DNA of 60,117 bases, taken from NCBI GenBank assembly GCA_017996215.1, contig JAGOHL010000017.1, positions 1 to 60,117 on the forward strand, read 5' to 3'. Source of the stretch: Nannocystaceae bacterium. Lineage in GTDB: Bacteria; Myxococcota_A; Polyangia; Nannocystales; Nannocystaceae. Position numbers and translations under genes: made by a program. How positions within the stretch are numbered: the first letter of the stretch is position 1; each line of letters starts with the position of its first letter. This document shows positions 16,186 through 53,006 of this stretch, piece after piece. A model generated the notes under the pieces. The model was not told where the DNA came from. It did not search any database and worked only from the letters and a program-made list of their open reading frames with translations.

Positions 16186-17172
16186 TCAGCGTGGGCGATC
16201 GTGTCGATGCACCCGGTGCGGCCGATGCCGCCCCGGCGGCTGCGCGCTCGCTTCGGCGACCGCGTCCTCGGCGAGGAAGCGTTCGGCCACGTCGACGTGC
16301 TCGTCGAAGTACTGCTTCTCCTGCGGAGAGCAGAACGCGAAGGTCTTGCCTGCCAGCGTCGAGGTCAACGTGGGATCGGCGTCCATCCAGCACAGCGGGC
16401 ACTTCGGTGCGGCCGAGCCGGCATCGGGCATGCGAGCGTACTCGCCGTTCGACGCAGCGTCGTGCCACCCCGGCCCTTGGTACTCCATGCCATCGGCGAT
16501 CGAACGAGCGCTGGACTCTCCGAGATATCTTGCGACCACGCGGAGTGCGAGGTCGATCCCCGACGAGATTCCGCCGGACGATGCGAGGTTGCCCGACTCG
16601 GTGAAGCGCGCCCCCCGAAGCACGGAGACCGCTGGAAAGTCGCCTGCCAGGCGAAAGTAGCCCCCGTGATGCGCCGTCGTCGCCTTGCCGTCGAGCAGTC
16701 CCGCGCGGGCGAGCACGAAGGCACCGTTGCACACCGACATCGTGACGTCGGTCTCGGGTGAGACGGTGCGGAGCCACTCCAGCATGTCGGGCGTCTCGCC
16801 GGTCAACGCGGGGATCACGACGACCTTGGGTGGCGGCGCGTCGGCGAAGGTGTAGTCGGGGATCACCTGCATGCCGCCGAACACACGCACCGGATCGCGC
16901 GTCTGCGCGACGAAGTACGGCTCGAAGAGCGGATGTCCATCCTCCGTCCACGCCGCCGCGAAGACCTCGAGTGGCCCCGTGAAGTCGAGCACTTCGGCGT
17001 CGGGCCCGAGCACGATCGCCAGCGGCAACTCGCCGCCGGGCGGGACCGGCAGCGGCGAGGGGACCTGCGTGGCCGCTCGCGCGACCGGCTCGGCCGCCGC
17101 GTCGAGCGGTGCGTGGCGATCCGATGGGCCGCGCGCGCACGCGACGACAGCAAGTGTGAGCGCGAGCCTCAT
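16186..17172 (-). CDS. DJ-1/PfpI family (class I glutamine amidotransferase-like) lipoprotein with C-terminal YHS domain
   Basis: Internal ATG 17172 gives MRLALTLAVVACARG. DJ-1/PfpI core around the nucleophile-elbow Cys (TMSVCNGAFVLARAGLLDG). C-terminal KCPLCWMDADPTL...KTFAFCSPQEKQYFDEH is a YHS/TRASH-type metal-binding module. The upstream ~2.9 kb of the ORF is antisense junk. Confidence 0.82.
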   Translation of the reverse strand: MRLALTLAVVACARGPSDRHAPLDAAAEPVARAATQVPSPLPVPPGGELPLAIVLGPDAEVLDFTGPLEVFAAAWTEDGHPLFEPYFVAQTRDPVRVFGGMQVIPDYTFADAPPPKVVVIPALTGETPDMLEWLRTVSPETDVTMSVCNGAFVLARAGLLDGKATTAHHGGYFRLAGDFPAVSVLRGARFTESGNLASSGGISSGIDLALRVVARYLGESSARSIADGMEYQGPGWHDAASNGEYARMPDAGSAAPKCPLCWMDADPTLTSTLAGKTFAFCSPQEKQYFDEHVDVAERFLAEDAVAEASAQPPGRHRPHRVHRHDRPR

Positions 17173-17469
17173 TCGCCCACGCCAGACGTCGATCACGGCG
17201 CCACCGTGAGTGTCACGTCTCGCAGCTGTGGGTCGGCTGCAATGTCGACCTCGCGGAAGGGGAAGTCGAACCACTCGCCCAGCGTCGAACAGAGCTTCGG
17301 TACGCACACGAGTCGTCTCACGCGATCGACATAACAGGGTCCGAACTCGACGAGGTGTGGTGAAACTTCGCAGCGTCACTTCGCGGCGGCCCGCAAGCAG
17401 CCCCCGCGCGAAAGCACCGCAGGTGCAGCCGCTCGACGCCCCAACGACGCCGCGGGTAGTGTCTGCGCG

Positions 17470-24390: not shown

Positions 24391-26655
24391 TCACAGCGGC
24401 GCGCAGCCGTCGATGGCGCACGCGAGGCGCCGCCGCACCGACTTCGCCTGCACGGCCTCGTAGCTGTGATCGCCGGCCCGCGTGGTGCGGAAGCCGTCGA
24501 TCGACAGGGCGCTGCCCGCGAAGCTCCCGTCGGCCTTGCCCGGGTAGACGTAGAGCACCTGCGAGGGGTGCACGGTCACGAGATCCGCACGACCGTCGCC
24601 GGTGACGTCGAGCGGCGCCAGCACGTCGAAGCCCTCGCCGTCGAACAGCGAGGTCGGCATGGTGCCGGCGAAGCTCTCGACGCGGGTGCCGAACACACCG
24701 GTGGTGGTGCCGAGGTACACGTAGGCGGTGCCGTCGGTGTGCAATGTGACGAGGTCGGCCTTGCCGTCGCCGTCGACGTCGCCGAGGCCGATCGGCTCGA
24801 AGCCCTCGCCGTCGGGCAACGCGGGATTCATGGTGCCCGCGAACGATTCCACCGCGCTGCCGAAGGTGCCATCGGGCTTGCCGGGGAACACGTAGGCGCT
24901 GCCGCTGGTGTGCAGCGTGACGAGGTCGGCGCGGCCGTCACCGGTGACATCGGCGACATCGATCGGGAAGTGCCCTTCGCCGTCGAAGGTCGCGGAGTCG
25001 AAGGTGCCGGCGAACGAGCTGCTCGAGCCGCCGAACCGCGCGTCGGCGAGGCCAGGGTGCACGAACACGGAACCGCCGCGGGCGCTCACGAGATCGCCGC
25101 GGCCGTCGCCGTTCACGTCGGCGACGGCGATGGGCTCCCAGCTCGCCGCGTCGGTCAGGCTCACCGGGTACGTGCCGGCGAACGACGAGACGCCGCTCGC
25201 GAAGGTGCCACCTGGTCGGCCGGGATAGACGTACGCGCTGCCGTCGTCGTATGCGGTGACGAGGTCGGCGAGCAGGTCGCCATCGACGTCCGCGACGTCG
25301 ATCACCAGGTGACCGGGCCCGCCGAAGATCGCCGTCGGCATGGTGCCGCCGAAGCTGGGTGGCGCGGGCAGCAGCACGCCATCGGGCGCGCCGAGGAACG
25401 GATACGCCGTGCCGTCGACCAGCGTGACGACATCAGCGATCTGATCGCCGTTGATGTCGCCGCGGGTGGCCTTCGACGGTGAGCTGCCGGCGTGGCAGTT
25501 GCCGCTGGCCTGGCTGTACGAGTTGCTGCCGACGAAGAGGTTGCCGAAGAAGTAGCGCTGGATGATCGCGGTGCCGGCCCCCTGCGACTGTCCGAAGCAG
25601 TTGTCGTCGATGTACGCCCCGACCTTGGGCTTGCCACGGATGACGATGCCCTGCTCGGTGCCGAGGAAGGTGTTGTGGTGGATGTCGATCACGTCGCCGG
25701 CCCACGGCGAGCCGTCGCCGTCGGCCTCGTCTTGGCCGTGCATGTCGAGCGCGTGGCCGTTGCGCGTGGCGCCGATGTGATTGTGGCGAGCCTCGTACGA
25801 GATGCCGAGCCGGCCGGTGCCCGCGATCGAGTGGCGATTGGCGTTGTACTCGTTGTACTCGAAGATGCCGTCGGCCTCGTGTACGAGCACGGTGCCGTAG
25901 CCGAGGCCCGTGCGTCGGTTGTGGTGGATCGCGTCGTGGTCGACGCGCGCCCGCACGGCGTAGTCGAGCAGGATCGCGGCGTGCGACCAGCCCGAGAGCT
26001 CGCTGTGGTCGACGCGCAGGCCATCGGCATGCATCGCGCGCACGGCCCGACACAGTGGCTCGCCATAGGCCGACGCCCCGATGTCCTGGTCGGGGCCGAG
26101 CAGTCGCACGCCGGTGACGCGCACACCGTCACCCCCGGCGTCGAACAACGACGGCGTATCCTGGGTGTTGGTGCGAAGGATCGCTCCGCCTGCGCCGCCG
26201 TTGCCACCGCCGCCCGACAACGTGACCTGCGGCGGGATCACCAGACCACTCTTGCCGCTGAGATCGAGATCGGCACCGGCCTCGATCTCGATCACCGAGC
26301 CCGGGGTCGCGATCATCAGCGCGCTCTCGAGCTCGGCGACGGTGCCGACCGGGAGCACCACGACCTCCGACGGCGGTGGCTCGACCGGCGGCAGCCCGGC
26401 GTCGCCGGTCGACGCGTCACCACCGGAGCTGTCGGCCGCGGTGCCGACGTCGCTGCCCGAGCTGCCCTCGATGCCACCGCTGGTGCCGTCGGCGGCGGAA
26501 GATGCCTCGCCGGCGCCCGTGCTCAGACCATCGTCGGTGCTGCCGGACGACCCGTGCGCCGGCGCATCGGCGCACGCGACGAGGAGCGCGGTCGGAAGCA
26601 GGATGACGAGCGATCGCACGCGATCACGCTGGCACGCTCGCGACGCCGCCAACAA
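24391..26655 (-). CDS. Lipoprotein with right-handed parallel beta-helix (pectate-lyase-like) domain and C-terminal FG-GAP/VCBS-like repeats
   Basis: Signal LVILLPTALLVACADA. Beta-helix-like segment (NTFLGTEQGIVIRGKPKVGAYIDDNCF...). Six or more repeats of the type DV.GDGRADLVT.H.SG.AYV.PG...GTF. Confidence 0.78.
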   Translation of the reverse strand: MLAASRACQRDRVRSLVILLPTALLVACADAPAHGSSGSTDDGLSTGAGEASSAADGTSGGIEGSSGSDVGTAADSSGGDASTGDAGLPPVEPPPSEVVVLPVGTVAELESALMIATPGSVIEIEAGADLDLSGKSGLVIPPQVTLSGGGGNGGAGGAILRTNTQDTPSLFDAGGDGVRVTGVRLLGPDQDIGASAYGEPLCRAVRAMHADGLRVDHSELSGWSHAAILLDYAVRARVDHDAIHHNRRTGLGYGTVLVHEADGIFEYNEYNANRHSIAGTGRLGISYEARHNHIGATRNGHALDMHGQDEADGDGSPWAGDVIDIHHNTFLGTEQGIVIRGKPKVGAYIDDNCFGQSQGAGTAIIQRYFFGNLFVGSNSYSQASGNCHAGSSPSKATRGDINGDQIADVVTLVDGTAYPFLGAPDGVLLPAPPSFGGTMPTAIFGGPGHLVIDVADVDGDLLADLVTAYDDGSAYVYPGRPGGTFASGVSSFAGTYPVSLTDAASWEPIAVADVNGDGRGDLVSARGGSVFVHPGLADARFGGSSSSFAGTFDSATFDGEGHFPIDVADVTGDGRADLVTLHTSGSAYVFPGKPDGTFGSAVESFAGTMNPALPDGEGFEPIGLGDVDGDGKADLVTLHTDGTAYVYLGTTTGVFGTRVESFAGTMPTSLFDGEGFDVLAPLDVTGDGRADLVTVHPSQVLYVYPGKADGSFAGSALSIDGFRTTRAGDHSYEAVQAKSVRRRLACAIDGCAPL

Positions 26656-26755: not shown

Positions 26756-27826
26756 TCAGGGCAGCGTGTGCTCGGCAAAGAAATCGAGCATGCGCTCGGT
26801 GGCGTCGACGGTGTCACTGTAGGGGCCGATGAACGAGTAGCACATCTCCGGCGTGCGGCCGGGCCAGCAGTGGCCCATCGGATCGAGGGTGCACATGCGG
26901 ACGTCGCCGTCGCCGTCGCAGTCGGTCCACGTGCGGCAGCTGCCGCCGTCGAGCTCCTCGACGATCGGCTCGGGATCGCAGCCGTCGATCTCGACCCAGC
27001 GATCGATCGTCGCGTTCGCGGCGGCGATCGGCACCAGGGGATCCTGCACGCCATTGAAGGCAAACACCGGCATCGGTCGCTCGGGTGTGCAGGTGTCGAG
27101 GGGGATCTGGAGCGACCCGACCACCGGCGCCACGGCGGCGAAGAGATCCGCGGCCTCGCAGGCGAGGCGGTTCGACATGAAGCCGCCGTTCGACAGCCCC
27201 GTGGCGTAGATCCGCTGGGGGTCGACGCACGCGGCCGACGCGATGTCGGCGACCACGGCGCGGATGAAACCGACATCGTCGACGCCGCCCGCCGACGAGT
27301 TGCCGCAGCACGCACCGGCGTTCCACGAGTTGTTCAACCCCTCGGGATGGGCGACGACGATGCCGCGAGGATCGGCGGCGTCGATCATCTGCGACCACTG
27401 CGACTGCATCGTCGGGTTGGACAGGAAGCCATGCATGTTGACGATGAGCGGCGCCGAGGACTCGGCGGTCGGCGAGACGTGGAGGTAGTAGCGTCGTTCG
27501 ACACCGTCGAAGTCGAGCGTGCGCTCGTAGTCGCCGGGCGCCAGGGGCAGCTCCACGTCGCAACCCGCCGCCGGCGGGCCGCTGTCCTCCGACGAGCTGC
27601 CGTCGCTGTCGCCCGCGCCGTCGGTGGTGTCGGCCGTGGTGGGCTCGGCCGTGGTCGCGCCGCCGGTGGTCACGCCACCCTCGGTGGAGGAACCCGCAGT
27701 GCTCGCCCCGGCCTCCGAGGAGCCGGAGCTGCCGGAGCTGCTGCCGTCTTCGCTCCCGCCGCCCGAACCACCCGTCGAGCCACACGCACCAAGCACCAAG
27801 CAGATCGATCCGACGAGAGTCCGCAT
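26756..27826 (-). CDS. Extracellular PHB-depolymerase-family esterase (LpqC-like), lipoprotein
   Basis: MRTLVGSICLVLGACGSTGG signal/lipobox. Gly/Ser linker. Esterase_PHB-like core with GLSNGG (G-x-S-x-G) nucleophile elbow. Confidence 0.78.
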   Translation of the reverse strand: MRTLVGSICLVLGACGSTGGSGGGSEDGSSSGSSGSSEAGASTAGSSTEGGVTTGGATTAEPTTADTTDGAGDSDGSSSEDSGPPAAGCDVELPLAPGDYERTLDFDGVERRYYLHVSPTAESSAPLIVNMHGFLSNPTMQSQWSQMIDAADPRGIVVAHPEGLNNSWNAGACCGNSSAGGVDDVGFIRAVVADIASAACVDPQRIYATGLSNGGFMSNRLACEAADLFAAVAPVVGSLQIPLDTCTPERPMPVFAFNGVQDPLVPIAAANATIDRWVEIDGCDPEPIVEELDGGSCRTWTDCDGDGDVRMCTLDPMGHCWPGRTPEMCYSFIGPYSDTVDATERMLDFFAEHTLP

Positions 27827-27954
27827 GAGGGTGCGCTTGGGTTGGATCCGAGGCGCGCGAGGTTCCGGCGATGCCCGCGACCACGGGCGACGCCGGCTCG
27901 GACCGCGTTCGTCGAGGCTTGTCCGGGGCGAGCGCAGTGCGATCGGGCACCGCG

Positions 27955-29097
27955 TCATCGCAGGCGCTTGCTCGCCTCGAGGCGCTCGCTCGCGTAGCCC
28001 CGCTGCAGCAGCCCGCGCACGAGCCGACTCCGGTAGATCCCGCTGCCGACCAGCACGTCCATCGCGTCCTGCACCGCCAGCCGCATGGCGCTGGGCACCG
28101 CGATGTCGGCGAAGCGCCGCCGCTTCATCTGCGCGAGCGCGGCCGCGGTGCCGCCGTGCAGCGCGGCCTCACCCGCGAGCATGCCGGTGTGCAGCGCCTG
28201 CCAGATACCCTCGCCCGCGAGCGGGTCGACGTTGTAGCCGGCGTCGCCGGCCACCAAGAGTCCGGGCACGGTGTGCGGCGCCGGTGGGACCGCCAGCGGC
28301 AACGCCCAGCTGCGCGTGCGACCGACCAGCTGCGCGTGTGCGAAGCGATCGCGGTGCGTGGCCTTGAACGCCTCGAACAACGCGACCAACGAGCGGCCGT
28401 GGGCGTGGAATCGATCCGCGCGCTGGTACACGCCGACGTTCGCGACGCCATCGACAGCTGGGAAGATCCAGCCATAGCCCGCCCGCAGATCGTGCTCGAA
28501 GAAGTGCTCGGCGGCGTCGGGCCACGCGCCCGGTTCCACGCCCGTCATGTACGCCGTGAGCGCGACCGCGAGGTGTCGGCCGCGACGGTACGGCTGCCCG
28601 AGCGCGCTCTGGGCCAGCGAGCCCGGCCCGTCCGCCGCGATCACGACGTCGGCATGCAGGCACTCGCCGCCGGCGAGCTCGACCCCGGTCACGCGCGCGC
28701 CGATGCGGCGCAACCCGGTCGCGCGGACCCCCTCGCGCAGCTCCGCGCCAGCGCGCTCGAGCCCGCCGCGCAGCGCGTCGTCCAACGCGAGCCGCGGCAC
28801 GATGTAGCCCGGCCGCGCGCCGAAGCTGCGGACGATCGCACCGGCCTCGGGCAGCAACGCGACGCCGGTGTCGACCCGTGCGTGGGGCACGGCCGCCAGC
28901 GCGCTCGCGGCATCGCGTGCGCCAGTGAACTCCGCGAACAGCTCGGCGGCGCGGTTCGAGATCGCGTCGCCGCAGGTCTTCGGCCGCGGAAATCTCGCGC
29001 GATCGATCACGATCACGCGCGCGCCGGCGCGCGCGACCACCGTGCCCGCCGCGCAGCCGGCCGGCCCGGCGCCGATGATCACGACATCGATGGGCAT
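27955..29097 (-). CDS. Geranylgeranyl reductase family / FAD-dependent oxidoreductase
   Basis: N-terminal FAD motif MPIDVVIIGAGPAGCAAG. GGR-family features (RPKTCGDAIS, GDAGYNVDPLAGEGI). The start lies 3 nt downstream of the arylsulfotransferase stop. Confidence 0.82.
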   Translation of the reverse strand: MPIDVVIIGAGPAGCAAGTVVARAGARVIVIDRARFPRPKTCGDAISNRAAELFAEFTGARDAASALAAVPHARVDTGVALLPEAGAIVRSFGARPGYIVPRLALDDALRGGLERAGAELREGVRATGLRRIGARVTGVELAGGECLHADVVIAADGPGSLAQSALGQPYRRGRHLAVALTAYMTGVEPGAWPDAAEHFFEHDLRAGYGWIFPAVDGVANVGVYQRADRFHAHGRSLVALFEAFKATHRDRFAHAQLVGRTRSWALPLAVPPAPHTVPGLLVAGDAGYNVDPLAGEGIWQALHTGMLAGEAALHGGTAAALAQMKRRRFADIAVPSAMRLAVQDAMDVLVGSGIYRSRLVRGLLQRGYASERLEASKRLR

Positions 29098-29100
29098 GCG

Positions 29101-30714
29101 TCAGCGGGCCGCCACGCCGACGAGGCGATCGTTGGCGGTCGTGCGGTAGATCCACCGGTTGTCGGGGGTGGTGAACGACCAGATGCGCGTGGGGTCGTGG
29201 CTCTCGTCGAGCTCGCGCACGCGCGCGTTGACCTGGCCCTGGGCGCCGAAGATCGCGGCGTCGGTCACCAGCAGGTGGCCACCGGCGATGCGATCGGCGT
29301 CGCCGGCGAAGATCACCTGGAACGGTGGCTCGTCGTCCTCCCACGCCACGCTCGCGGTCATGCCGACGTCGTCGAGTGCGTAGCGGACCGCACGGGTCTC
29401 GACCGCCAGCGGCGAGATGTACGGGTTGCCGTTGCCGTTGTCGAACAGCAACAGCGTGCCGTCGTCCTGCCACTGCGGCGCGTGCTGGTGGAAGAACCAC
29501 GTGTCGCCACCATCGAGGGCGAAGTCGCCTTCGTCACCCAAGCGCCACAGCACGTCGCCGGTCGCGTAGTCGATCGCGATGATCCAGTCCTGGTGACGCA
29601 GGGACATCGTGATCACACCGGTGGTCTCGTCGAGCAACACCGCGTTGGCATGGGTCCAGTCGAGCGCACTCTCGCCATCGACGGGATTGACGATGAGGTC
29701 CTCGCCGTTCTCGCGGCGCCGCTGCGGATCGAGGTGATCGAACGAGTTCCAGCTCCACACCACATCGCCGTCGAGGGTGAACTCGACGATGGTGTCACCG
29801 ACGGTGTAGCGGGTGCCGAGGTCGGGGTAGTCGACGTCGCGGAAGTCCTGCGAGATGGCCATGAAGTTGCCGTTCGACAGCTCGATGACGTCGTGGTGCA
29901 GCGTCGGCAGCCCGAGGTCGACGGCGTGGATCTCGGTGAGCACGTTGCCGAGCTCGTCGCGGATCCAGAACGTGTCGCCGCTGATGCCGAGGATCGTGCC
30001 GTCGGCGCGCAGCCGCACGGCCACCCACACCGCCGGCGGACCCACCAGGGTCGTGGGCGCCGAGAGGTACCAGCGGGTGATGCCGGCCGGATCGATCATG
30101 ATCGCACCCGCGAAGTCGCCGGCCGGCCACGGGTTCCAGTCCGACATGCGAAAGAGCGGCGCAGGCTCGACGTCGCTGGTCTCGAGCGCGAAGGCGCCGA
30201 CGAAGCCGTTCAACGCCGCCGGCGTCTCGAACTCGACCTCACCGCTCGTAGCCGCGCCGCCCTCGGTGGCCGCGACCTCGAACTGCAGCGTGTGCATGGT
30301 CGCCGGTGCCAGGCCACGCACGCGGAAGTGCAGGTGCGTGTCGTCGCCGCCCTCGGTCGCCGCGATCACCACGCCCTGATCGGTGGCGTGTGCGACGCTC
30401 GCCGAGCCGGCCGCGCTCAGCGTCAGCACGAGATCGGCGACCATCGGCTGGCCGTCGTAGGTGGTGATCTCGGCCTCGACCTCGATCGGCACCACGCCGC
30501 TCGAGCTGTCGGCCGCGCTGCTCGAGCTGTCGGCCGACGTGGTCGTCGCGCTCGTCATCGTGGTCGATGCAGTGGTGGTCGCGGTCTCGCTGCCGCCGTC
30601 ACTCGACGACGACGACGACGCGCCGGCCTCGTCGGCGGCGGCACCATCGTCGGCGCAGCCGGGGGCAAAGGGCACGAGCGCGAGCGAAATCCAAGTCTTC
30701 GTCAGGGCCTTCAT
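29101..30714 (-). CDS. Arylsulfotransferase (ASST) family protein, lipoprotein
   Basis: MKALTKTWISLALVPFAPGCADDG signal/lipobox. Ser/Thr-rich linker. ASST-like beta-propeller region (HHDVIELSNGNFMAIS...WTHANAVLLDETTGVITMSLRHQDWIIAID). Confidence 0.75.
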   Translation of the reverse strand: MKALTKTWISLALVPFAPGCADDGAAADEAGASSSSSSDGGSETATTTASTTMTSATTTSADSSSSAADSSSGVVPIEVEAEITTYDGQPMVADLVLTLSAAGSASVAHATDQGVVIAATEGGDDTHLHFRVRGLAPATMHTLQFEVAATEGGAATSGEVEFETPAALNGFVGAFALETSDVEPAPLFRMSDWNPWPAGDFAGAIMIDPAGITRWYLSAPTTLVGPPAVWVAVRLRADGTILGISGDTFWIRDELGNVLTEIHAVDLGLPTLHHDVIELSNGNFMAISQDFRDVDYPDLGTRYTVGDTIVEFTLDGDVVWSWNSFDHLDPQRRRENGEDLIVNPVDGESALDWTHANAVLLDETTGVITMSLRHQDWIIAIDYATGDVLWRLGDEGDFALDGGDTWFFHQHAPQWQDDGTLLLFDNGNGNPYISPLAVETRAVRYALDDVGMTASVAWEDDEPPFQVIFAGDADRIAGGHLLVTDAAIFGAQGQVNARVRELDESHDPTRIWSFTTPDNRWIYRTTANDRLVGVAAR

Positions 30715-30831
30715 GGGGGCCCTTGGAGCCTGCCACATCGGCGCGTGGCGAGCGTGGGACGGCGCTCGTGCGTTCTCACCCACCCTCGTCGATGCGTTCG
30801 TGGCACGGAACCACTGGTGTCGCGGCCAAGG

Positions 30832-31764
30832 CTACGAGCCTGCGTTGCAGCGACCCAGCACGCAGCGCGCCCCCGAAGGGCAGCCAGCATCGACGACGCA
30901 CTCGCGGTCGCCGGACAGGCACGCCCCGACCTCGCAGCGGGTGCCGCCGGGGCAATCGCCGTCCTTCCAGCAGTGGCGCGCGCCGCCGAGGCAGCGACCG
31001 AACTCGCACCGCGCCTCGCCCTCGCAGTCGAGATCGCGCTCGCACTCGCGCTTGCCGGTCGCGCAGCGGCCCATCTCGCAGCGACGCTCGCCGCCGCAGT
31101 CGCGATCGACCATGCACTGCCTCGTGCCCTCGGTGCAGCGATTGAACTGGCACCGCTTGCCGGCGGCGCAGTCGGCATCGCGCAGGCAGTCGCGACCGCC
31201 CTCGACGCAGCGACCGAACACGCAGCGACGCTCGTTGCTCGCGCCGCAGTCGACGTCGAGCAGGCACTCGCCCGCGGTCGCGACACAGGCCCCGAACATG
31301 CACAGCTGATCGCTCTCGGGGCACGCTCGTCCGTCGCCGCAGCTGCGCACACCTGGCAGGCAGGTCGATTGCTCGCAGCGCGCAGCGGCGCCGCAGTCGT
31401 CGTCCTTCTCGCAGTTGTGCTCGCCGTCGACGCAGAAGCCCCCGTTGCAGCGCTCCCACGGACTGCACTCCGCATCACGCTTGCACGTGGTCAGCACGAT
31501 CTCGCCGCCACCACCGGGCCCCGGTGGCAGACGGATCTCGTGGGGCAGCTCGGGCGGAGGTTGGGTTGTCGTCGCGTCGGGCGTCCCCTCGGATGCGACC
31601 GTGGGCGGCTTCGGACGCGGCGTCACGGGGCCGGGCGTCCGCGGCGGAGCGGGTCGCTCGACCCGCACCGCCGGCGTGGTCGTGCGCGGCCGGACCACGA
31701 CCCACGCAGTGGTCCCGACCACCGTCGTCGCCGCCGCCACCAGGGCCCATCCGACCAGACGCAT
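30832..31764 (-). CDS. Secreted protein with ~12 tandem Cys-rich repeats (D.DC....RC..G.C..G.R.C)
   Basis: TM/signal MRLVGWALVAAATTVVGTTAWVVV. Pro-rich linker. 12 or more copies of a ~24-aa module with 4 Cys each. Confidence 0.72.
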   Translation of the reverse strand: MRLVGWALVAAATTVVGTTAWVVVRPRTTTPAVRVERPAPPRTPGPVTPRPKPPTVASEGTPDATTTQPPPELPHEIRLPPGPGGGGEIVLTTCKRDAECSPWERCNGGFCVDGEHNCEKDDDCGAAARCEQSTCLPGVRSCGDGRACPESDQLCMFGACVATAGECLLDVDCGASNERRCVFGRCVEGGRDCLRDADCAAGKRCQFNRCTEGTRQCMVDRDCGGERRCEMGRCATGKRECERDLDCEGEARCEFGRCLGGARHCWKDGDCPGGTRCEVGACLSGDRECVVDAGCPSGARCVLGRCNAGS

Positions 31765-31916
31765 GCAGGTGAGCACGATGGTAGTGCATCGAGTGCGCCG
31801 TTGCGAACCCAACGCCCGGGCGTGGGTGCTCGCGATGCCAGTGTCACTGGTGTCGTTTGGGGTGTCGCTCGGGGCATCGCTCGGGGCGTCGCCTGGGGGT
31901 GCTACGATCGCGCGCC

Positions 31917-32711
31917 ATGTCCGGTTCCGATCGCGTCCTTCTCACCGTGACCGAGCACGTCGCCCACGTGCGACTGAACCGCCCCGACAAGCGCAACGGT
32001 CTCGACTTCGCGATGTTCGACGCGTTGGTGCGCACGGGGCTGTCGCTGCGCGATCGCGGCGACGTGCGGGCGGTGGTGCTGTCGGGCGAGGGCAAGGCCT
32101 TCTGCGCCGGGCTCGATTGGATGGCGTTCCTCGGCGGTGATGCCTCGCGCCGCGCCGAGCTGTTGCTGCGCGACGACGACAGCCCGGCCAACCTCGCCCA
32201 GCGCGCGTGCTGGATCTGGACCGAGCTCTCGATGCCGGTCATCGCGGTGGTGCACGGCGCGACCTTCGGTGGCGGCCTGCAGCTGGCGCTCGCGGCCGAC
32301 CTGCGGCTGCTCGCCCGCGACGCGCAGCTGTCGGTGATGGAGATCCGCTACGGCCTCGTGCCCGACATGACCGCGTCGCAGACGCTGCTCCGACTGGTGC
32401 GAGACGACCTGGCGCGCGAGCTGGTCTACACCGGCCGCGTGGTCGAGGCCGAAGAGGCGGTGCGCCTGGGGCTCGGCACCCGCGTGTGCGACGATCCGCT
32501 GGCCGAGGCACTGGCGCTGGCGCGCACCATCGCGGGCGCGTCGCCCTCGGCGATGCGCAGCGCCAAGCAGCTGTGCACGACCTCACCGCAGCTGTCGACC
32601 GCCGACGCGCTGCGGCTCGAGACCGAGCTACAGCTGGGCCTGCTCGGCACCGCCGAGCAGATGGAGGCGGTCAGCGCCTCGATGCAGAAGCGCGTGCCGG
32701 TGTTCGAGTAG
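31917..32711 (+). CDS. Enoyl-CoA hydratase/isomerase (crotonase) family protein
   Basis: VAHVRLNRPDKRNGLDFAMFDAL...VVLSGEGKAFCAGLD...AVVHGATFGGGLQLALAADLRL are classic crotonase motifs. Confidence 0.85.
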   Translation: MSGSDRVLLTVTEHVAHVRLNRPDKRNGLDFAMFDALVRTGLSLRDRGDVRAVVLSGEGKAFCAGLDWMAFLGGDASRRAELLLRDDDSPANLAQRACWIWTELSMPVIAVVHGATFGGGLQLALAADLRLLARDAQLSVMEIRYGLVPDMTASQTLLRLVRDDLARELVYTGRVVEAEEAVRLGLGTRVCDDPLAEALALARTIAGASPSAMRSAKQLCTTSPQLSTADALRLETELQLGLLGTAEQMEAVSASMQKRVPVFE

Positions 32712-32745: not shown

Positions 32746-33771
32746 TCAGGCCGGGCGCAGCAGCTCGACCGCGAACCACTGCCGCTCGTCGGTCCACGCG
32801 CGATCGACCCGCAGGCCCGCCGCGCGGGCCATCAGCGCGAAATCGTGGGGCCGGTACTTGTGCGAGTACTCGGTGACGATCGACTCGCCGTCGCGGAAGC
32901 GGAACCGCTGCCCGGCGACGGTGACGATCTGCGCGCAGGTCGATACCAGCGTCATCACCACCCGCGACTGTGCATCGTCGACGAACGCGCGGTGGCGGAA
33001 GCGCATCGGCTCGAAGTCAGCCCCGAGCTCGCGGTTGATGCGATGCAGCAGGTTGAGGTTGAACTCCGCGGTCACGCCGGCGGCGTCGTCGTAGGCGGGC
33101 TCGAGGATGGTCGGCGACTTCATCAGGTCGATGCCGATGAGCACCGCACCACCGGGGCCGGCCATGTGACGCATGCTCTCGAGCAGGGCGATGGCCCGCG
33201 GGCGCTCGAAGTTGCCGATCGTCGAGCCGGGGAAGTAGACCACCCGCGGGGCCGGCACCGCGGGCAACGGCAGCGGTCGCATGAAGTCGCCCGCGACCGG
33301 GAGGATCTCGATCGCGGGGTACTGTCGCCGCAGGCCGACCGCGGTGGCCTCGAGGTGCTCGCGCGAGATGTCGACCGGGACGTAGCTGCGCGGCCGATCG
33401 AGCGCATCGAGCAGCAGCCGGCTCTTGGTCGAGCTGCCGCTGCCGAGCTCGATGATGCTCGCGCCGGGGCCGATCGCATCGGCCATCGCGCCGGCGTACT
33501 CGGCCATCAGCGCCAGCTCGGTGCGAGTGACGTAGTACTCGGGCAGATCGCAGATCGCGTCGAACAGCGCCGAGCCGCGCTCGTCGTAGAAGAACTCGGT
33601 CGGCAGGCGCTTGTCGGGCCGCGCGAGCCCCTCGAGCACGAGCGCACGGAAGCGGTCGACACCGGCGAGCGCGTTGGCGGGCTCTTGATCGAGCACCGCC
33701 GTGGAGTCGGCGAACGCGTCGTCGCGGTCGAGGCCTTGCCGCGCGGTGCGGGGCGATGCTGGACGTGTCAT
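32746..33771 (-). CDS. egtD: L-histidine N(alpha)-methyltransferase EgtD (ergothioneine biosynthesis)
   Basis: LPTEFFYDERGSALFDAICDLPEYYVTRTE, IIELGSGSSTKSRLLL, YVPVDISREHL, VYFPGSTIGNF are diagnostic of EgtD. ATGA overlap with egtB. Confidence 0.88.
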   Translation of the reverse strand: MTRPASPRTARQGLDRDDAFADSTAVLDQEPANALAGVDRFRALVLEGLARPDKRLPTEFFYDERGSALFDAICDLPEYYVTRTELALMAEYAGAMADAIGPGASIIELGSGSSTKSRLLLDALDRPRSYVPVDISREHLEATAVGLRRQYPAIEILPVAGDFMRPLPLPAVPAPRVVYFPGSTIGNFERPRAIALLESMRHMAGPGGAVLIGIDLMKSPTILEPAYDDAAGVTAEFNLNLLHRINRELGADFEPMRFRHRAFVDDAQSRVVMTLVSTCAQIVTVAGQRFRFRDGESIVTEYSHKYRPHDFALMARAAGLRVDRAWTDERQWFAVELLRPA

Positions 33772-35066
33772 GGATCCCTCACGAGTCGAATGCCCGAGAA
33801 CTGCCAGCGTGCAGCCGGGTCGAAGAAGTTGCGGTACGTCGGGCGGACGTGCGAGCCCGGTGTGACACAAGATCCACCACGCAGCACGAACTGGTTGCAC
33901 ATGAATTTTCCGTTGTACTCGCCGAGTGCACCGGCGGGCGCGCGGTATCCGGGGTAGCCCCCATACGCGCTGGCAGTCCACTCCCAGGCATCGCCGAACA
34001 GCTGGGCGGGAAGCGAGGTCGCGGTGTCGCAATCCGTCACGGGGCACGGATGCAACCCGCCCACCTCGACGAAGTTACCGACCATCGGAGCGCCCGCCGC
34101 GATCGACTCCCACTCCTGCTCGGTCGGCAGGCGTGCGTCGGCCCAGCGTGCATAGGCATCGGCCTCGAAGTAGCTGACGTGGGTCACCGGCGCCGCGAGC
34201 TCGAGCGGGCGCTGGCCGGCGAGCGTGAACTCCTCGAAGCCATCACCGGTCGCGCGCCAGTACGCGGGCGCGTCCCAGCCGTGCGTCATCACGGTGTCGT
34301 AGCCGATCGACAGCCACAGCTCGGGCCGGCGATAGCCGCCGTCCTCGACGAATGCGAGGAACTCGCCGTTGGTCACCAGCCGCGAGGCCAGCGCGAACGG
34401 CTGCAAGAACGCGCGGTGACGCGGGCCCTCGTTGTCGAAGGCGAAGCCGCGGCCGTCATGGCCGATCTCGACCACGCCGCCGTCGTCGGGCAGCCATCGC
34501 AGCGGTGTCGTCGCGACCGCTGGCCGCGTCGGCTGTTCGCGGTACACCGGCGCGATCTGGTTGCACGCGAACGCATGCAGCAGATCGGTGAGGATCAGCT
34601 CCTGATGCTGCTGCTCGTGGTGCAGCCCCAGCTCCACGATCGCGAGCACTGCAGGCGGCAACGTGCCGGCCGCGAGCGCCCGATCGATCGCGTCGTCGAC
34701 GTGGGCGCGGAACGCCAGCACATCGGTGAGACCCGGACGCGAGAGCACGCCGCGGGACGGCCGCGGATGGGCCGGACCGACCGACACGTAGTAGGAATTG
34801 AACAGCGCGGCGTAGCGTTCATCGAGCGGTCGGTAGCGCGGCACGTGGGGCCGCAGCACGAAGGTCTCGAAGAACCACGCGGTATGGGCGAGGTGCCACT
34901 TCACCGGGCTGGCGTCCGGCATCGACTGGATCTGCATGTCCTCGGGCGACAGACCTGCGGTCAGCGCCGAGGTGGCCGAGCGCACCGCTTGGTAGCTCGC
35001 GCGGGGATCGTCGGCGAAGGCCTGCGTGAGCGCGCGAGGAGGCGGCACGTGGGACGCATTCGTCAT
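33768..35066 (-). CDS. egtB: Ergothioneine biosynthesis protein EgtB (hercynine oxygenase; DinB_2 + FGE-sulfatase domains)
   Basis: DinB-like N-domain (HLAHTAWFFETFVL, HHEQQHQELILTDL). FGE-sulfatase C-domain (VSYFEADAYARWADARLPTEQEWE...GDAWEWTASAYGGYPGY...RGGSCVT). Confidence 0.88.
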   Translation of the reverse strand: MTNASHVPPPRALTQAFADDPRASYQAVRSATSALTAGLSPEDMQIQSMPDASPVKWHLAHTAWFFETFVLRPHVPRYRPLDERYAALFNSYYVSVGPAHPRPSRGVLSRPGLTDVLAFRAHVDDAIDRALAAGTLPPAVLAIVELGLHHEQQHQELILTDLLHAFACNQIAPVYREQPTRPAVATTPLRWLPDDGGVVEIGHDGRGFAFDNEGPRHRAFLQPFALASRLVTNGEFLAFVEDGGYRRPELWLSIGYDTVMTHGWDAPAYWRATGDGFEEFTLAGQRPLELAAPVTHVSYFEADAYARWADARLPTEQEWESIAAGAPMVGNFVEVGGLHPCPVTDCDTATSLPAQLFGDAWEWTASAYGGYPGYRAPAGALGEYNGKFMCNQFVLRGGSCVTPGSHVRPTYRNFFDPAARWQFSGIRLVRDP

Positions 35067-48899: not shown

Positions 48900-48956
48900 C
48901 CATCCGATCATTTGACCCCGCGGGTCCGGCCGCGCGAGGCTTGGTGCAACCTGGGC

Positions 48957-51900
48957 ATGGACGCACCGCGAACACTGCGATCACTCGCGAAGGACCTCGG
49001 GCTGGAGTGGATCGACGGGCCCGCGACCGCCACGCTCGAGGCCGACATCGCCCGCGCGAATCGAGCGTTCGACAGGAACGACCACGAGAAGATCGGCTTC
49101 GGCGCCAGGGATGTCAGCACGGCCGGTGCGCTCGTGGGCGCGCTCGCGTCGCTGGTGCGCAAGCCCAACCTCGCGCCGATGCTCGCGCGCGTGCGTGCTC
49201 GCGTCGACGAGGTCACGCCGGCCGAGGGCGAGCCCACCATCGACGTCGGCGTCGGCGAAGCCATCGCCCGGGCCGCCCGCGACGACACCGACCGCGTCTT
49301 CGACGACCTCTTCCTCGCCCGCGCGCTCCTCGAGCAACCCGGCGAGCTCGTGCACGGCGGTCTCGCGCCGTTCGGGCTCTCGGCCGAGGCGCTACGGCGC
49401 GGGCTGGACGATGCACTCGCGCTCGAGCTCGACGGCGAACGCGATCGACCGCTCGCCGACAACCAACGCGAGCTCGACGACGCGGTGTTCCGTGCCGCCG
49501 GCCGTCGGCTCGGCGACCTCGGCGAGGCCGCGCGGTGGCTCGAGCGCGGCCACGACGGCGACGAGGCGATGTACGCCGCCGGTAGCCCGAGCGCGCGACG
49601 CATCGGCTCGCACCGCGCGCTGCGACGACACGCGCGCAGCAACGGTGAGCTCCGCCTGGTGCCGCGGTTGCTGGCCGATTTCGCGTTCTCGGACGCGGCC
49701 CGCGAGGTGCTGGGGCTGGCCGATCGCTTACGCGGCGATGCTCGACACGTCCACGTCGAGCACCTGATGGTCGCGCTCTACGACGCCAAGGCGAGTCCCG
49801 CCCGCGCGGCGTTCGATCGAGCCGGCGTCTCGCGCGACGCCATGCTCGCGCGGCTGCACGGCAGCGAGCTCGCCGAGCAGCGCTCGGCAACCTACGTCGC
49901 CAGCGAGCGCGTACCGCCGCTGTCGTCCCATGCCGCGCTCGCGCTGGTCCACGCCGCGCGGCACGCCGCGAACCGCGGCGATGCGACCCTCCGCGGTCGC
50001 GATCTGCTCACCGGCGTGTTCGCGGTCGAGGGCTGCCACATCGTCGAGAAGTTCACCGACGTCCGCGTCGCGCTGGCCAGCGGACCCGCGCCCGCGCGCG
50101 AGCCCGACGAGACTCGGACCCCCGCCGCGCCGCAGCATCCGATGGTCGTCGCGTCGAGCGTGGCGCGCTTCGGCGGCGACGGCCTCGACGGCCCCGACGT
50201 GCTCGGCTTCACGCTCGAGGTCGATGCGCTCGCGCGCTTGATTGCCTCGGAGGGCATCGATCCGCCGCTGTCGATCGGGCTCTTCGGTGAGTGGGGCTCG
50301 GGCAAGAGCTACTTCATGCGACGCCTGCGCGAGCGGATCGAGCAGCTCGCGGCCGCCACCCGCCGTCGCCGTGAGCGCGACGACGTGCCGCCACCGGCGT
50401 ACGTGGGCCACGTGGTGCAGGTCGAGTTCAACGCGTGGAACTACGTCGAGGTCGATCTGTGGGCGAGCCTGGTCGCGCACATCTTCGATCGGCTGCACGC
50501 CCACGTGATCGACGAGCCCGGCCTCGAGCAGCGCCAGTGGGAGAGCTTGCTGCACCGCCTCGACGACGCCGAGAACCGCCGCCACGATGCCAAGCAGGCG
50601 CTCGAGCTGGCGCAAGCGCGGCTCGACATGCGCCGCCGCGAGCAGGCGGCCCGCGAGCGCACGCTCGCCTATCAGATCGAGATCCTCCGCCGCCACGCCA
50701 AGCTCAAGCGACCGATCGCGGAGATCGAGGGCACGCTCGGCATCGCGGCCGCGCGCGAGTTGTGGGACGCGATCGTGCTCCGCAGCAGCCGCGCGACCGC
50801 GGTCATCAAGGCCATGCCCGACTCGCTGCGGGCGGCACGATCGCTGTTCACCGGTCCGGCAGCGTGGTGGCTCATGGCTGCGATCGTGCTCGTGATCGGC
50901 GGCTTGCTGCTGGCGCGCCAGCTCGAGTGGCTGCCCGATCTCGCGGCGGTGGCCGCCGCGATGCCGCTGCTGCTGGCGTGGGTGCGCAAGGCGCTCGGCC
51001 GTAGCGACGCGCTGCTCGCCGCCATCGAGGCGTTCCAAGAGGGGCTGCTCGAGCTCGAGCGCTCGAAGCAGGAGGTCGATCGTGAGGCACTCGAGCGCCT
51101 GCGCGACGACGCGATGGCGGTCGAACAGGCCCGCGCCGAGCACGACGCCGAGCGGGCGCGCGTCGACTCGTTGCGCGACGAGATCGCGCGGCTGTACCCC
51201 GGTGAGCAGCTCGCCGATTTCCTGGCCGATCGCGCGGCCAGCAGCGACTACCGCCGCCACCTCGGCCTGCCCGCGCTGGTGCGACGCGACTTCGAGCGGC
51301 TCGGCCGACTGGTGCGGCCGCACACCCACCGCCTACCACGCGATCACGTGACCGGCCTCGCACTGGCCCAGGCGCCGCAGCACCTACTCGACATGCTGCA
51401 TCGCCTCGAGCCCGACGCGACCGAACCGTTCGAGGTCGTGCGAGTCGAGCGGTCCGGCGACCGCGTGCGAGCGTTCGCACCCGACGGGCGCTGCGCGATC
51501 TTCAGTTGCTGCGAGCCGATCGAGGGTGACGAGCACCCTGCGCCCTACGAGATCGATCTGCGCTCCGTCGACGACGAGCCGCTCGGGGGCCCCCGCGACG
51601 AGCTGGGCCGCCTGGGTCGGCGCGTGCCGGAGCGCCTGGTCGACGGCCTGCGACCCGCGATGATTCCCGCGCGTCTCGCCGAGCTGCTGCGCCGCGATGC
51701 GCCGCTGCGGGGCGAGCGACTCGTGCACGACACCACCCTCGACCGCTGGGTGCTGACCGATCACGACGGCGCCCGCCGGGTCGAGATCGGCTTCGACGGC
51801 GAGCTCGCGATCGTCGAGATCGGTTGGCCGATGCACCCGACGATCGAGCGCATCGTGCTGTACATCGATGATCTGGATCGCTGCCCGCCCGAGCGCGTGG

Positions 51901-53006
51901 TCGAGGTGCTGGGCGCGGTGCACCTGCTGCTGGCGTTCCCGCTGTTCGTGGTGGTGGTGGCCGTCGACGAGCGCTGGCTGGTGGGCTCACTCGAGGATCA
52001 GCACGCCCAGCAGCTGCGACCCGCCGCGGCCCCGAACGCCGGCAACACGCTCGCGATGGGCGCGTTCGACGGTCTCGCGACCCCCCGCGACTACCTCGAG
52101 AAGATCTTCCAGATCCCGTACTGGGTGCCGCGCATGACCACCGCGTCGGCGCGCGACCTCATCGCCGACATGGTCGCGCAGGGCGAGCGCATCGAGCTGC
52201 CGCGCGCCGACCCGACCCGCGTGGTGTGGGTGGATCGCCCGCGACCGAGCTCGACGCCGCCGCCCGCGGACGGCCCCCTGCCCGAGGCCGAGACCGCGCC
52301 GGCCGAGGTCCCGGGCCCCGACGTGGAGGACGAGCCGAGCGGTGGCAGCGTCCCGGGACCCGACGTCGAGTCCAGCGAGGGTGACGACGGCGGCATGCCG
52401 GGCTTCATGAGCCTCGCCGGTACCGCGGTGAGCAACGCGGTCGAGGCGATCTCGGAGGCGTTCTCCGGCGCCGCCGAGCCCACCGCCGCGCCGACGACGG
52501 ACGACGAGTCGGGCGCCGACGACGAGCTGCTCCGCGTGCAGCCGATCTCGATCGGCGAGCGCGAGCGACTGGCGCTGCAGGCCCTGGTGCCGTTGGTGCA
52601 GAAATCGCCGCGCGCGGTGAAGCGCTTCGTCAACGTCTATCGCGTCATCCGCAGCACGCTCGGTGATCAGGCCGACGTCTTCATGCAGCACGACGACGAC
52701 GAGGTGCCGTTCGGACCCGCGACCGTGCTCATCGCGATGATGGTCGGCGACCCCGAGGCCGGCGCCTCGTTGATCGCCGCGCTCGAGCAGGACGGTGACG
52801 ACGACGGCTCGCTGCACGACAGCATGCAGCGGTGGATCGACGCCAAGCCGACGCTCGGCGAGGCCACGAGCATGGCGCTCACGCTCGCGCTGACTCGCGC
52901 CGGCTGGGCTCGGCAGCGTCGGGTCGATCTGCGGGGCGTGGTCGGTCGCGTGCGCCGCTTCTCGTTCGGCGCGCGCAACCTCGGCGTCGGCCAGCAGCGA
53001 CACTGA
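48957..53006 (+). CDS. KAP-family P-loop NTPase (transmembrane NTPase) with ~440-aa N-terminal Clp_N-like repeat module; 1349 aa
   Basis: Walker A LFGEWGSGKSYFMRRL. TM hairpin inserted in the NTPase domain (WWLMAAIVLVIGGLLLARQ...LAAVAAAMPLLLAWV). Walker B hhhhYIDDLDRC (RIVLYIDDLDRCPPERVVEVLGAVHLLLAFPLFVVVVAVDERWL). C-terminal KAP signature QKSPRAVKRFVNVYRVIRS. N-terminal region contains three Clp_N-like repeats (e.g. HVEHLMVALYDAKASPARAAFDRAGVSRDAMLARL). Confidence 0.85.
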   Translation: MDAPRTLRSLAKDLGLEWIDGPATATLEADIARANRAFDRNDHEKIGFGARDVSTAGALVGALASLVRKPNLAPMLARVRARVDEVTPAEGEPTIDVGVGEAIARAARDDTDRVFDDLFLARALLEQPGELVHGGLAPFGLSAEALRRGLDDALALELDGERDRPLADNQRELDDAVFRAAGRRLGDLGEAARWLERGHDGDEAMYAAGSPSARRIGSHRALRRHARSNGELRLVPRLLADFAFSDAAREVLGLADRLRGDARHVHVEHLMVALYDAKASPARAAFDRAGVSRDAMLARLHGSELAEQRSATYVASERVPPLSSHAALALVHAARHAANRGDATLRGRDLLTGVFAVEGCHIVEKFTDVRVALASGPAPAREPDETRTPAAPQHPMVVASSVARFGGDGLDGPDVLGFTLEVDALARLIASEGIDPPLSIGLFGEWGSGKSYFMRRLRERIEQLAAATRRRRERDDVPPPAYVGHVVQVEFNAWNYVEVDLWASLVAHIFDRLHAHVIDEPGLEQRQWESLLHRLDDAENRRHDAKQALELAQARLDMRRREQAARERTLAYQIEILRRHAKLKRPIAEIEGTLGIAAARELWDAIVLRSSRATAVIKAMPDSLRAARSLFTGPAAWWLMAAIVLVIGGLLLARQLEWLPDLAAVAAAMPLLLAWVRKALGRSDALLAAIEAFQEGLLELERSKQEVDREALERLRDDAMAVEQARAEHDAERARVDSLRDEIARLYPGEQLADFLADRAASSDYRRHLGLPALVRRDFERLGRLVRPHTHRLPRDHVTGLALAQAPQHLLDMLHRLEPDATEPFEVVRVERSGDRVRAFAPDGRCAIFSCCEPIEGDEHPAPYEIDLRSVDDEPLGGPRDELGRLGRRVPERLVDGLRPAMIPARLAELLRRDAPLRGERLVHDTTLDRWVLTDHDGARRVEIGFDGELAIVEIGWPMHPTIERIVLYIDDLDRCPPERVVEVLGAVHLLLAFPLFVVVVAVDERWLVGSLEDQHAQQLRPAAAPNAGNTLAMGAFDGLATPRDYLEKIFQIPYWVPRMTTASARDLIADMVAQGERIELPRADPTRVVWVDRPRPSSTPPPADGPLPEAETAPAEVPGPDVEDEPSGGSVPGPDVESSEGDDGGMPGFMSLAGTAVSNAVEAISEAFSGAAEPTAAPTTDDESGADDELLRVQPISIGERERLALQALVPLVQKSPRAVKRFVNVYRVIRSTLGDQADVFMQHDDDEVPFGPATVLIAMMVGDPEAGASLIAALEQDGDDDGSLHDSMQRWIDAKPTLGEATSMALTLALTRAGWARQRRVDLRGVVGRVRRFSFGARNLGVGQQRH

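Follow-up and report, generated by a model that had tools for sequence, protein, structure and literature searches.

Within a 60,117-nucleotide stretch of contig JAGOHL010000017.1 of a Nannocystaceae bacterium (assembly GCA_017996215.1, positions 1 to 60,117; hereafter the window), the minus strand carries at 24.4-31.8 kb five consecutive open reading frames (ORFs), coding for a Cys-rich repeat protein, an arylsulfotransferase (ASST) lipoprotein, a flavoenzyme of the geranylgeranyl reductase (GGR) family, an esterase lipoprotein and a β-helix/FG-GAP lipoprotein (Table 1). An initial annotation had grouped the ASST, GGR and esterase genes into a tight operon with a shared pathway. Comparison with related loci points instead to a conserved ASST-GGR pair combined with a lineage-specific module of secreted lipoproteins, the pair being tied to a polyprenyl-lipid/glycosylation system; we consider the chances of this reading being right and being wrong as roughly equal. 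The four genes initially called on the minus strand are real and their family assignments hold, as judged by the ORFs and domain models. Indeed, at a G+C content of ~70% for the window, the G+C content of third codon positions (GC3) amounts to 0.89-0.92 in the four ORFs tallied (all but the Cys-rich gene), a value typical of real genes in this genome. The nearest named relatives of the uncultured source are Paraliomyxa, Enhygromyxa and Pseudenhygromyxa, and the window ASST is 100% identical to an NCBI protein of a 'Deltaproteobacteria' metagenome-assembled genome.

Synteny was assessed in 80 ASST-anchored metagenome loci and in nine GGR-anchored loci from long contigs (L081, L083 and L164-L170), in which homologues of all window genes were placed by tblastn. 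The GGR gene lies directly downstream of the ASST gene in 15 loci, where the ASST proteins are 43-99% identical to that of the window, and L168 is a sixteenth ASST-GGR locus. As initially annotated, the GGR ATG of the window is located exactly 3 nt past the ASST stop (TGA CGC ATG). Across eight arrangements, the distance between the ASST stop and the GGR start is +3 (window), +7, -4, +3, -4, +5, +5 to +20 and -4 nt; the value of +5 to +20 nt belongs to L115, whose start codon is ambiguous, and the other seven are comprised between -4 and +7 nt. Overlaps of the ATGA/GTGA type are a classic sign of translational coupling, and the spacing of these two genes suggests such a coupling. The flanks of the pair vary, with either the Cys-rich protein or a 408-aa lipoprotein upstream and either a GT-C glycosyltransferase gene, a histidine kinase gene or the esterase gene downstream. 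For instance, synteny with the 72%-identical relative L081 extends through EgtB, EgtD, enoyl-CoA hydratase, Cys-rich, ASST and GGR genes and breaks directly after GGR. The esterase gene follows GGR in L084 and L088 only, both of which are 97-99% identical to the window and belong to the same species. Of the synteny expected for the three genes, the ASST-GGR pair is therefore retained down to 43% ASST identity and the complete trio is confined to one species. In one metagenome-assembled genome (L167:3947-8943), ASST and GGR are separated by four inserted genes, which could constitute a small tailoring module; their products are an acyl-CoA dehydrogenase, an AMP-binding enzyme, an alpha/beta hydrolase and a halogenase-like FAD (flavin adenine dinucleotide) enzyme of 414 aa.

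In the relatives, which are marine-type myxobacteria, the pair is usually accompanied by further conserved genes. In all nine long contigs, GGR is followed, immediately or within a few kb, by two genes, one coding for a polytopic membrane protein of ~640 aa and the other for a UbiA-family protein of ~270 aa, and a second large membrane protein of ~620 aa is present in seven of the nine. The ~640-aa protein gave no Pfam match and no PDB sequence match, even at E≤10 in a profile search; its structural model (predicted local distance difference test score, pLDDT, of 89) matched 27 PDB entries with E<1e-3 in Foldseek, all 27 of them GT-C enzymes (STT3, AglB, DPY19, AftD, AftA, PglB and ArnT). A GT-C glycosyltransferase fold is thus predicted for this protein. 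The donors of GT-C enzymes are polyprenyl-phosphate-linked sugars, and the transfer takes place outside the cytoplasmic membrane. The cluster UbiA protein carries Asp-rich motifs and has only marginal PDB profile matches. In L098, the genes for a lipoprotein, ASST, GGR, GT-C, UbiA and the second membrane protein are contiguous on one strand. Paraliomyxa miuraensis, a cultivable relative, has the arrangement lipoprotein-ASST-GGR...GT-C...UbiA. L092 shows the order UbiA-GGR-GT-C-ASST, with all four genes kept together; since the order differs and the membership is the same, this locus provides the strongest argument that ASST belongs with the cluster. The conserved cluster is exemplified by L166:9157-13757 and L098:12532-17193, with equivalents in L081, L083 and L164-L170, and its genes are labelled 'hypothetical protein' in most sources.

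UbiA-type enzymes make polyprenyl-phosphate-linked donors in mycobacterial arabinan synthesis and in three-component pentofuranosylation systems (PMC11127046). As in the systems that combine a UbiA polyprenyl-phosphoribose synthase with GT-C enzymes, such as the mycobacterial decaprenyl-phosphate-arabinose (DPA)/arabinan pathway, the UbiA-family and GT-C-fold enzymes of the relatives are adjacent and conserved. On the other hand, these genes are absent from the window, the cluster UbiA is only remotely like the decaprenyl-phosphate phosphoribosyltransferases (DPPR synthases), no MATE/Gtr-type flippase, phosphatase or epimerase was seen, and GGR and ASST are additions undescribed for those systems.

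Several observations weigh against tying the pair to such a system. No UbiA or GT-C homologue was detected by tblastn (E≤1e-5) within about 28-32 kb on either side in the window, so that the pathway context is borrowed from the relatives; a homologue of the ~620-aa membrane protein was likewise not found by tblastn in the 60-kb window. Of the ASST homologues at 37-54% identity, about half lack a GGR gene in their vicinity, and at five of the nine GGR-anchored loci ASST is missing from the surrounding 8-9 kb, which makes ASST a frequent but not an obligatory member of the cluster. The cluster UbiA, which is remote to any characterised subfamily, scores 18.6 bits against the decaprenyl-phosphate phosphoribosyltransferase model (cut-off 234). 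The only match of the ~620-aa protein, to PMT_2, is sub-threshold (E=4.5e-4), and its profile gave no PDB sequence match even at E≤10; since hhalign detected no homology between it and the ~640-aa protein, its GT-C label depends entirely on that sub-threshold match. No flippase, phosphatase or sulfate-donor genes were identified. Finally, the linkage is seen in one Myxococcota family only, and descent therefore explains part of it.

Since partners are often missing nearby and the evidence comes from one bacterial family, it is a serious alternative, although in our estimation a rather unlikely one, that ASST and GGR have no functional link and are simply neighbours by descent, their spacing reflecting a compact packing of unrelated genes. 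Such shared ancestry would account for the restriction of the association to Nannocystaceae-like Myxococcota, for the unrelated contexts of about half of the related ASST genes, for the frequent occurrence of GGR without an ASST neighbour and for the location of the two products in different compartments. However, it fits poorly with a pair that persists while both flanks change, and that is kept in the window though the GT-C/UbiA neighbours are gone. It fits no better with the reordered L092, where ASST still stands with GGR, GT-C and UbiA, or with a spacing held between -4 and +7 nt in seven of eight arrangements, down to 43% ASST identity. In a neighbour-joining ASST tree (without bootstrap), the GGR-linked genes occupy three or more separate positions among unlinked genes, a topology compatible with an ancestral linkage as well as with repeated loss.

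The ASST protein, numbered here from its start MKALTK, is composed of a signal peptide with the lipobox Cys20, a Ser/Thr/Ala-rich linker, an Ig-like domain and a β-propeller; it scores 181.6 bits with PF05935 against a Pfam gathering cut-off of 24.2, and the initial call of an ASST lipoprotein is borne out. Residue conservation was examined in 30 homologues, in all of which Cys20 is present. The protein is predicted to be exported to the periplasm by its signal peptide and invariant lipobox Cys, and, because of this invariance, the family would consist of membrane-anchored periplasmic or surface enzymes. Profile alignment with E. coli AssT, using the active-site residues listed in PMC13426309, showed that H274, H355, N357 and R373 correspond to the sulfuryl-binding His252, His356, Asn358 and Arg374, and that H411 aligns with His436, the catalytic histidine that becomes transiently sulfated; none of the five varies among the same homologues, and the His436 register was confirmed by the H436N mutant chain 4P04. 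By alignment, the enzyme appears to have a complete ping-pong catalytic set. The column of E. coli Thr501, a further sulfuryl-coordinating residue, is occupied by Ala470 in the window ASST family, in a weakly aligned stretch.

Thus, the Ig-like domain and β-propeller, the invariant equivalents of these five active-site residues and the periplasmic export are common to the window ASST and E. coli AssT (PDB 3ELQ), a representative of the aryl sulfotransferases of PF05935 that are independent of 3'-phosphoadenosine-5'-phosphosulfate (PAPS). The two proteins differ in that they share only ~30% local similarity, in the lipid anchor of the window enzyme, attached through the lipobox Cys and a low-complexity linker, and in the Ala found at the Thr501 position. 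Furthermore, the window has no dsbL/dsbI partner genes, the ASST gene being coupled to a GGR-family gene instead. According to a 2026 review, the natural substrates and physiological role of bacterial PAPS-independent aryl sulfotransferases are poorly understood; the same source describes Cpz4 of caprazamycin biosynthesis, an ASST-type enzyme dedicated to one pathway, which sulfates a sugar hydroxyl of a glycolipid-like molecule (PMC13426309). Unlike Cpz4, the window ASST is accompanied by no type III polyketide synthase or PAPS-dependent sulfotransferase for the donor and by no antibiotic cluster, and the two enzymes come from different phyla.

The flavoenzyme begins with a Rossmann motif from residue 4 and, as no family member carries a signal peptide, it is predicted to be cytoplasmic. 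A cytoplasmic flavoenzyme unlinked to its secreted neighbours had been named at the outset as a possible refutation of the shared pathway; the enzyme is indeed cytoplasmic by its sequence, yet it is linked to the secreted ASST by a conserved coupling-type spacing. The hallmarks of GGRs are the FAD-binding GxGxxG, a Cys near the flavin (PxxCGD/E) and YxWxFP. In an alignment of 27 homologues, G9-x-G11-x-x-G14, P37-K40-C42-G43-D44 (PxxCGD context) and Y208-x-W210-x-F212-P213 are all invariant, and these motifs align with Ta0516 residues in the 3OZ2 alignment. The GGR-family identity is also upheld by the TIGR02032 score (Table 1). The best PDB match of the AlphaFold model (pLDDT 91) is Thermoplasma GGR 3OZ2 (E=3e-26, template modelling (TM) score 0.79). 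Since halogenases and monooxygenases rank just behind, the fold alone is not discriminating, and structure prediction, initially proposed to tell a GGR from an aromatic hydroxylase or halogenase, favours GGR with these families close behind. The sequence does not fit a flavin-dependent halogenase: the motif of these enzymes is WxWxIP, the corresponding stretch reads YGWIFP, and the PF04820 match is only partial (E=3.5e-5).

With Thermoplasma Ta0516 (3OZ2), Sulfolobus GGR (3ATQ), MenJ and BchP/ChlP, the window enzyme has in common the FAD fold, GxGxxG, the PxxCGD/E Cys, YxWxFP, a GDA...DP..G.G motif and the cytoplasmic location. Compared with the solved GGRs it is 20-22% identical, and it belongs to a Myxococcota-specific clade with its own neighbourhood. 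A profile search of contigs with the GGR alignment gave, among the matches listed, 26-36% identical GGR relatives from Actinobacteria and Archaea; no GGR orthologue was among these listed matches, generic FAD/CGD motifs being picked. The protein falls below the NCBIfam equivalog cut-offs for MenJ, BchP/ChlP, archaeal lipid reductases, QhpG and GoxB.

Some of these families suggest other roles for the flavoenzyme. It could be a MenJ-like reductase of the menaquinone side chain, with ASST sulfating the quinol head group in the periplasm, as in mycobacterial sulfomenaquinone. M. tuberculosis makes a sulfated menaquinone, and a dihydrogenated menaquinone has been reported from Plesiocystis pacifica, a member of this bacterial family. 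Among the NCBIfam matches, MenJ ranks second (E=1e-33), and many homologues are labelled 'menaquinone-9 beta-reductase' by JGI. However, the MenJ score (NF045655) is 116.8 bits against an equivalog cut-off of 700, the linked UbiA is not MenA (TIGR00751, 19.3 bits, cut-off 102), no men genes are located nearby, and the invariant partner is a GT-C glycosyltransferase without a role in quinone synthesis, so we hold this role to be improbable. Alternatively, the flavoprotein could act as a maturase of the ASST-like protein, modifying it prior to its export in the way that LodB/GoxB and QhpG modify quinoproteins. In the LodB/GoxB and QhpG systems the flavoprotein gene directly follows the target gene, and the order and tight coupling observed here resemble those of lodA-lodB; QhpG (E=7e-24) and GoxB (E=5e-9) are among the NCBIfam matches, nearly over the full length. 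Their scores are nevertheless 84.5 bits against 240 and 35.6 against 400, respectively, and the flavoprotein exceeds the cut-off of the GGR family and retains the Cys and YxWxFP motifs of GGRs. Moreover, some GGR orthologues have no ASST next to them, yet GT-C/UbiA always accompany them, and an ASST that already has the standard catalytic histidine set needs no extra cofactor; a maturase function seems very improbable. Both roles lose likelihood because the scores lie below threshold and the invariant partner is a glycosyltransferase.

The esterase gene is less closely associated with the pair. Its longest ORF (26756-27958) puts 44 residues ahead of the signal peptide, and an ATGA overlap with GGR, at 27958, exists for this longest ORF only. 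The lipoprotein signal MRTLVGSICLVLGAC starts at the second ATG, 27826, which is probably the true start. This start leaves a 128-nt gap after GGR, and therefore the tight spacing concerns ASST-GGR only; the 'tight operon' of three keeps its first two members and loses the third. The product carries a GLSNG nucleophile motif (GxSxG), which together with the NF050058 score (Table 1) confirms the initial assignment to LpqC-like esterase lipoproteins of the polyhydroxybutyrate (PHB) depolymerase family. Its best PDB sequence matches are the feruloyl esterases 9J07 and 8JH8 (E ~1e-18 to 1e-19). True PHB depolymerases typically have a C-terminal polymer-binding domain; Pfam and NCBIfam gave no further domain past the catalytic domain. 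Compared with the short-chain polyhydroxyalkanoate (PHA) depolymerases and CE1 feruloyl esterases, the protein has in common the α/β-hydrolase catalytic domain and the GLSNG elbow, whereas it lacks a C-terminal substrate-binding domain, is lipid-anchored and stays below the TIGR01840 cut-off (54.6 versus 107.85 bits).

Outside the species, a 38%-identical esterase homologue was found in L086, where it separates the Cys-rich gene from ASST and is encoded on the opposite strand. L086 and L087 are 99.9% identical over 11.6 kb, and an extra 1,382 bp in L086 carries one complete esterase lipoprotein gene. This segment spans 8572-9953 of L086, with a short TACTC at both edges, and its junction in L087 is at 177-180; since L087 starts only 177 nt before the junction, the difference might still reflect an assembly effect. 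Adjacency within a single species and this presence/absence difference indicate that the esterase is a mobile or dispensable neighbour and not a conserved pathway member. The gene for the β-helix/FG-GAP lipoprotein, which adjoins the esterase gene on its downstream side, has a tblastn match outside the window in L084 only and is, like the esterase, a lineage-specific neighbour.

The initial proposal placed ASST, GGR and the esterase in one pathway, with a secondary metabolite or an aromatic, prenylated or lipid compound as substrate, and it has some attraction. The three genes are co-directional in the window, an esterase homologue is present at the locus in a second lineage (L086), and the closest solved relatives of the esterase are feruloyl esterases, which release phenolic acids, phenols being typical ASST acceptors; the esterase could, for example, free a phenolic acid that would then be sulfated and reduced. 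However, the esterase follows GGR in the same species only, its homologue in L086 is on the opposite strand, in another position, 38% identical and absent from the 99.9%-identical L087, and the gap behind GGR is 128 nt if the lipoprotein start is used. Furthermore, a cytoplasmic reductase cannot reach a product released outside the cell unless this is re-imported, and the window has no core biosynthetic genes. Such a common pathway is, in our view, a slim prospect. Pfam scans of 28 high-confidence ORFs, covering ~6.9-56.1 kb of the window, revealed kinases, transporters, an RND (resistance-nodulation-division) efflux system, NadA and an EgtB/EgtD pair; since these ORFs include no polyketide synthase, nonribosomal peptide synthetase, terpene synthase or PAPS-type sulfotransferase, the window contains no biosynthetic gene cluster. 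A secondary-metabolite cluster was accordingly rejected and the secondary-metabolite reading is unsupported. As for the substrate, a prenylated or lipid compound fits the wider evidence, and it is the sharing of one pathway by all three enzymes that fails, the esterase not being conserved.

The Cys-rich protein contains nine repeats, where at least 12 had been proposed; the repeat motif first put forward matches only three times in its strict form. The unit is 24 residues long with four Cys, giving 36 repeat Cys at residues 110-322 of a 326-codon ORF. The repeats are visible in the protein only and were not detected at the DNA level by Tandem Repeats Finder. The presence of a Cys-rich repeat is thus confirmed, and its type is not the classical myxobacterial one: the Pfam search gave DUF7107 (Table 1), with no match to TIGR02232 and no hit in NCBIfam. 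The gene is found upstream of ASST in closer relatives only (L081, L084-L087 and L091), and in another clade its place is taken by the gene for an unrelated helical lipoprotein of 408 aa. In a lineage whose cluster lacks an ASST neighbour, the gene after the cluster codes for a lipoprotein that does carry the classical repeat (TIGR02232/DUF4215), together with a β-propeller (L166:13779-16911 and L169:13962-15491), and in L166 this gene precedes an MbnB/TglH/ChrH-family gene and a 76-aa ORF. This lipoprotein was considered as an analogue of ASST and rejected, since the signal peptide alone matches.

Table 1. Genes of the minus-strand block in the window, with the domain models that identify them.
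Feature	Position (nt)	Strand	Characteristics
Cys-rich repeat protein	30832..31764	-	ORF; N-terminal membrane anchor/signal MRLVGWALVAAATTVVG..., Pro-rich linker, 9 repeats; Pfam DUF7107 E=4e-13
ASST family lipoprotein	29101..30714	-	PF05935 E=2.9e-53; PF17425 E=8e-5
GGR-family FAD enzyme	27955..29097	-	TIGR02032 197.7 bits (cut-off 158.8); no signal peptide
PHB-depolymerase/feruloyl-esterase (LpqC-like) lipoprotein	26756..27826	-	NF050058 170.3 bits (cut-off 150); PF10503 E=7.6e-6
β-helix + FG-GAP/VCBS lipoprotein	24391..26655	-	PF13517 E=4.7e-33; PF13229 weak, E=0.0018

Around this block, an ergothioneine pair composed of EgtB (TIGR03440, 557 bits) and EgtD (TIGR03438, 384 bits) is located just upstream, at 32746-35066 (-), and is also found upstream of the Cys-rich-ASST-GGR block in L081 and L084-L086. 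A divergent enoyl-CoA hydratase gene at 31857-32711 (+) lies between this pair and the Cys-rich gene; at this locus it was found in L081 and L084 only. The 1,359-codon open frame at 27871-31950 (+), antisense to the entire ASST-GGR-Cys-rich block, failed the codon-composition filter; it is no gene but a shadow ORF of the kind typically seen in DNA of 70% G+C. Unrelated to the ASST-GGR finding, the product of 48912-53006 (+), 1,364 aa long, contains a P-loop NTPase domain of the KAP family (E=6e-25). ARAGORN reported a tRNA-Asp (GTC) of 101 nt at 17087-17187 (-), unusually long for a bacterial tRNA; Rfam at its gathering threshold found no tRNA there, and the call may be false or the gene disrupted. 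No RNA family was found by Rfam in the window. Between 24000 and 32500, a promoter consensus scan returned no promoters, and a terminator scan returned a single terminator-like site, located within the esterase gene, a count lower than expected from shuffled sequence; as these scans are uninformative, operon boundaries cannot be set from them.

Under the favoured reading of a conserved pair tied to a polyprenyl-lipid/glycosylation system, ASST and GGR would form, in the relatives, the upstream end of a cluster running from the Cys-rich protein or another lipoprotein through ASST, GGR, GT-C and UbiA to the second membrane protein, and in the window lineage a rearrangement directly after GGR would have removed the GT-C/UbiA genes from the neighbourhood. 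On the cytoplasmic side, GGR, whose family, fold and motifs are apparent, may saturate at least one double bond of a polyprenyl chain. From the gene linkage and from what is established for UbiA and GT-C enzymes, this chain would most likely be part of a polyprenyl-phosphate carrier or of a prenyl lipid on which the UbiA-type enzyme acts, and the saturated chain could then serve as lipid-linked sugar donor for one or more GT-C enzymes outside the cytoplasmic membrane. A precedent comes from Haloferax, where dolichol phosphate is saturated by a homologue of GGR (Naparstek 2012, as cited in PMC10821996). On the periplasmic side, ASST might use an aryl-sulfate donor to sulfate a hydroxyl group on the resulting envelope glycoconjugate or on another acceptor. 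The esterase would be an independently acquired surface hydrolase, which more plausibly pairs with the adjacent β-helix protein on a polymer substrate. It is conceivable, although we judge it unlikely in this complete form, that ASST-GGR(-GT-C-UbiA) serves an envelope glycoconjugate made from a partly saturated, dolichol-like polyprenyl-phosphate donor and sulfated extracytoplasmically by the PAPS-independent ASST.

A full-text literature search found no papers naming arylsulfotransferase together with geranylgeranyl reductase or UbiA, and none of those returned mentioned an arylsulfotransferase in any context; the conserved ASST-GGR(-GT-C-UbiA) association appears to be undescribed, its parts being unremarkable representatives of known families. 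For the window itself, the three enzyme annotations are sound, and the trio represents neither a pathway nor a biosynthetic gene cluster. The comparison also flags a Myxococcota-specific GGR/GT-C/UbiA cluster that has so far been unannotated. The link between ASST and an isoprenoid reductase provides a concrete lead on the role of ASST, with a testable site of action, namely an envelope lipid or glycoconjugate. If the glycoconjugate scheme is true, ASST enzymes would gain a physiological function in the biogenesis of the cell envelope, and carrier-lipid saturation of the archaeal/eukaryotic style would be shown to occur in a bacterium.

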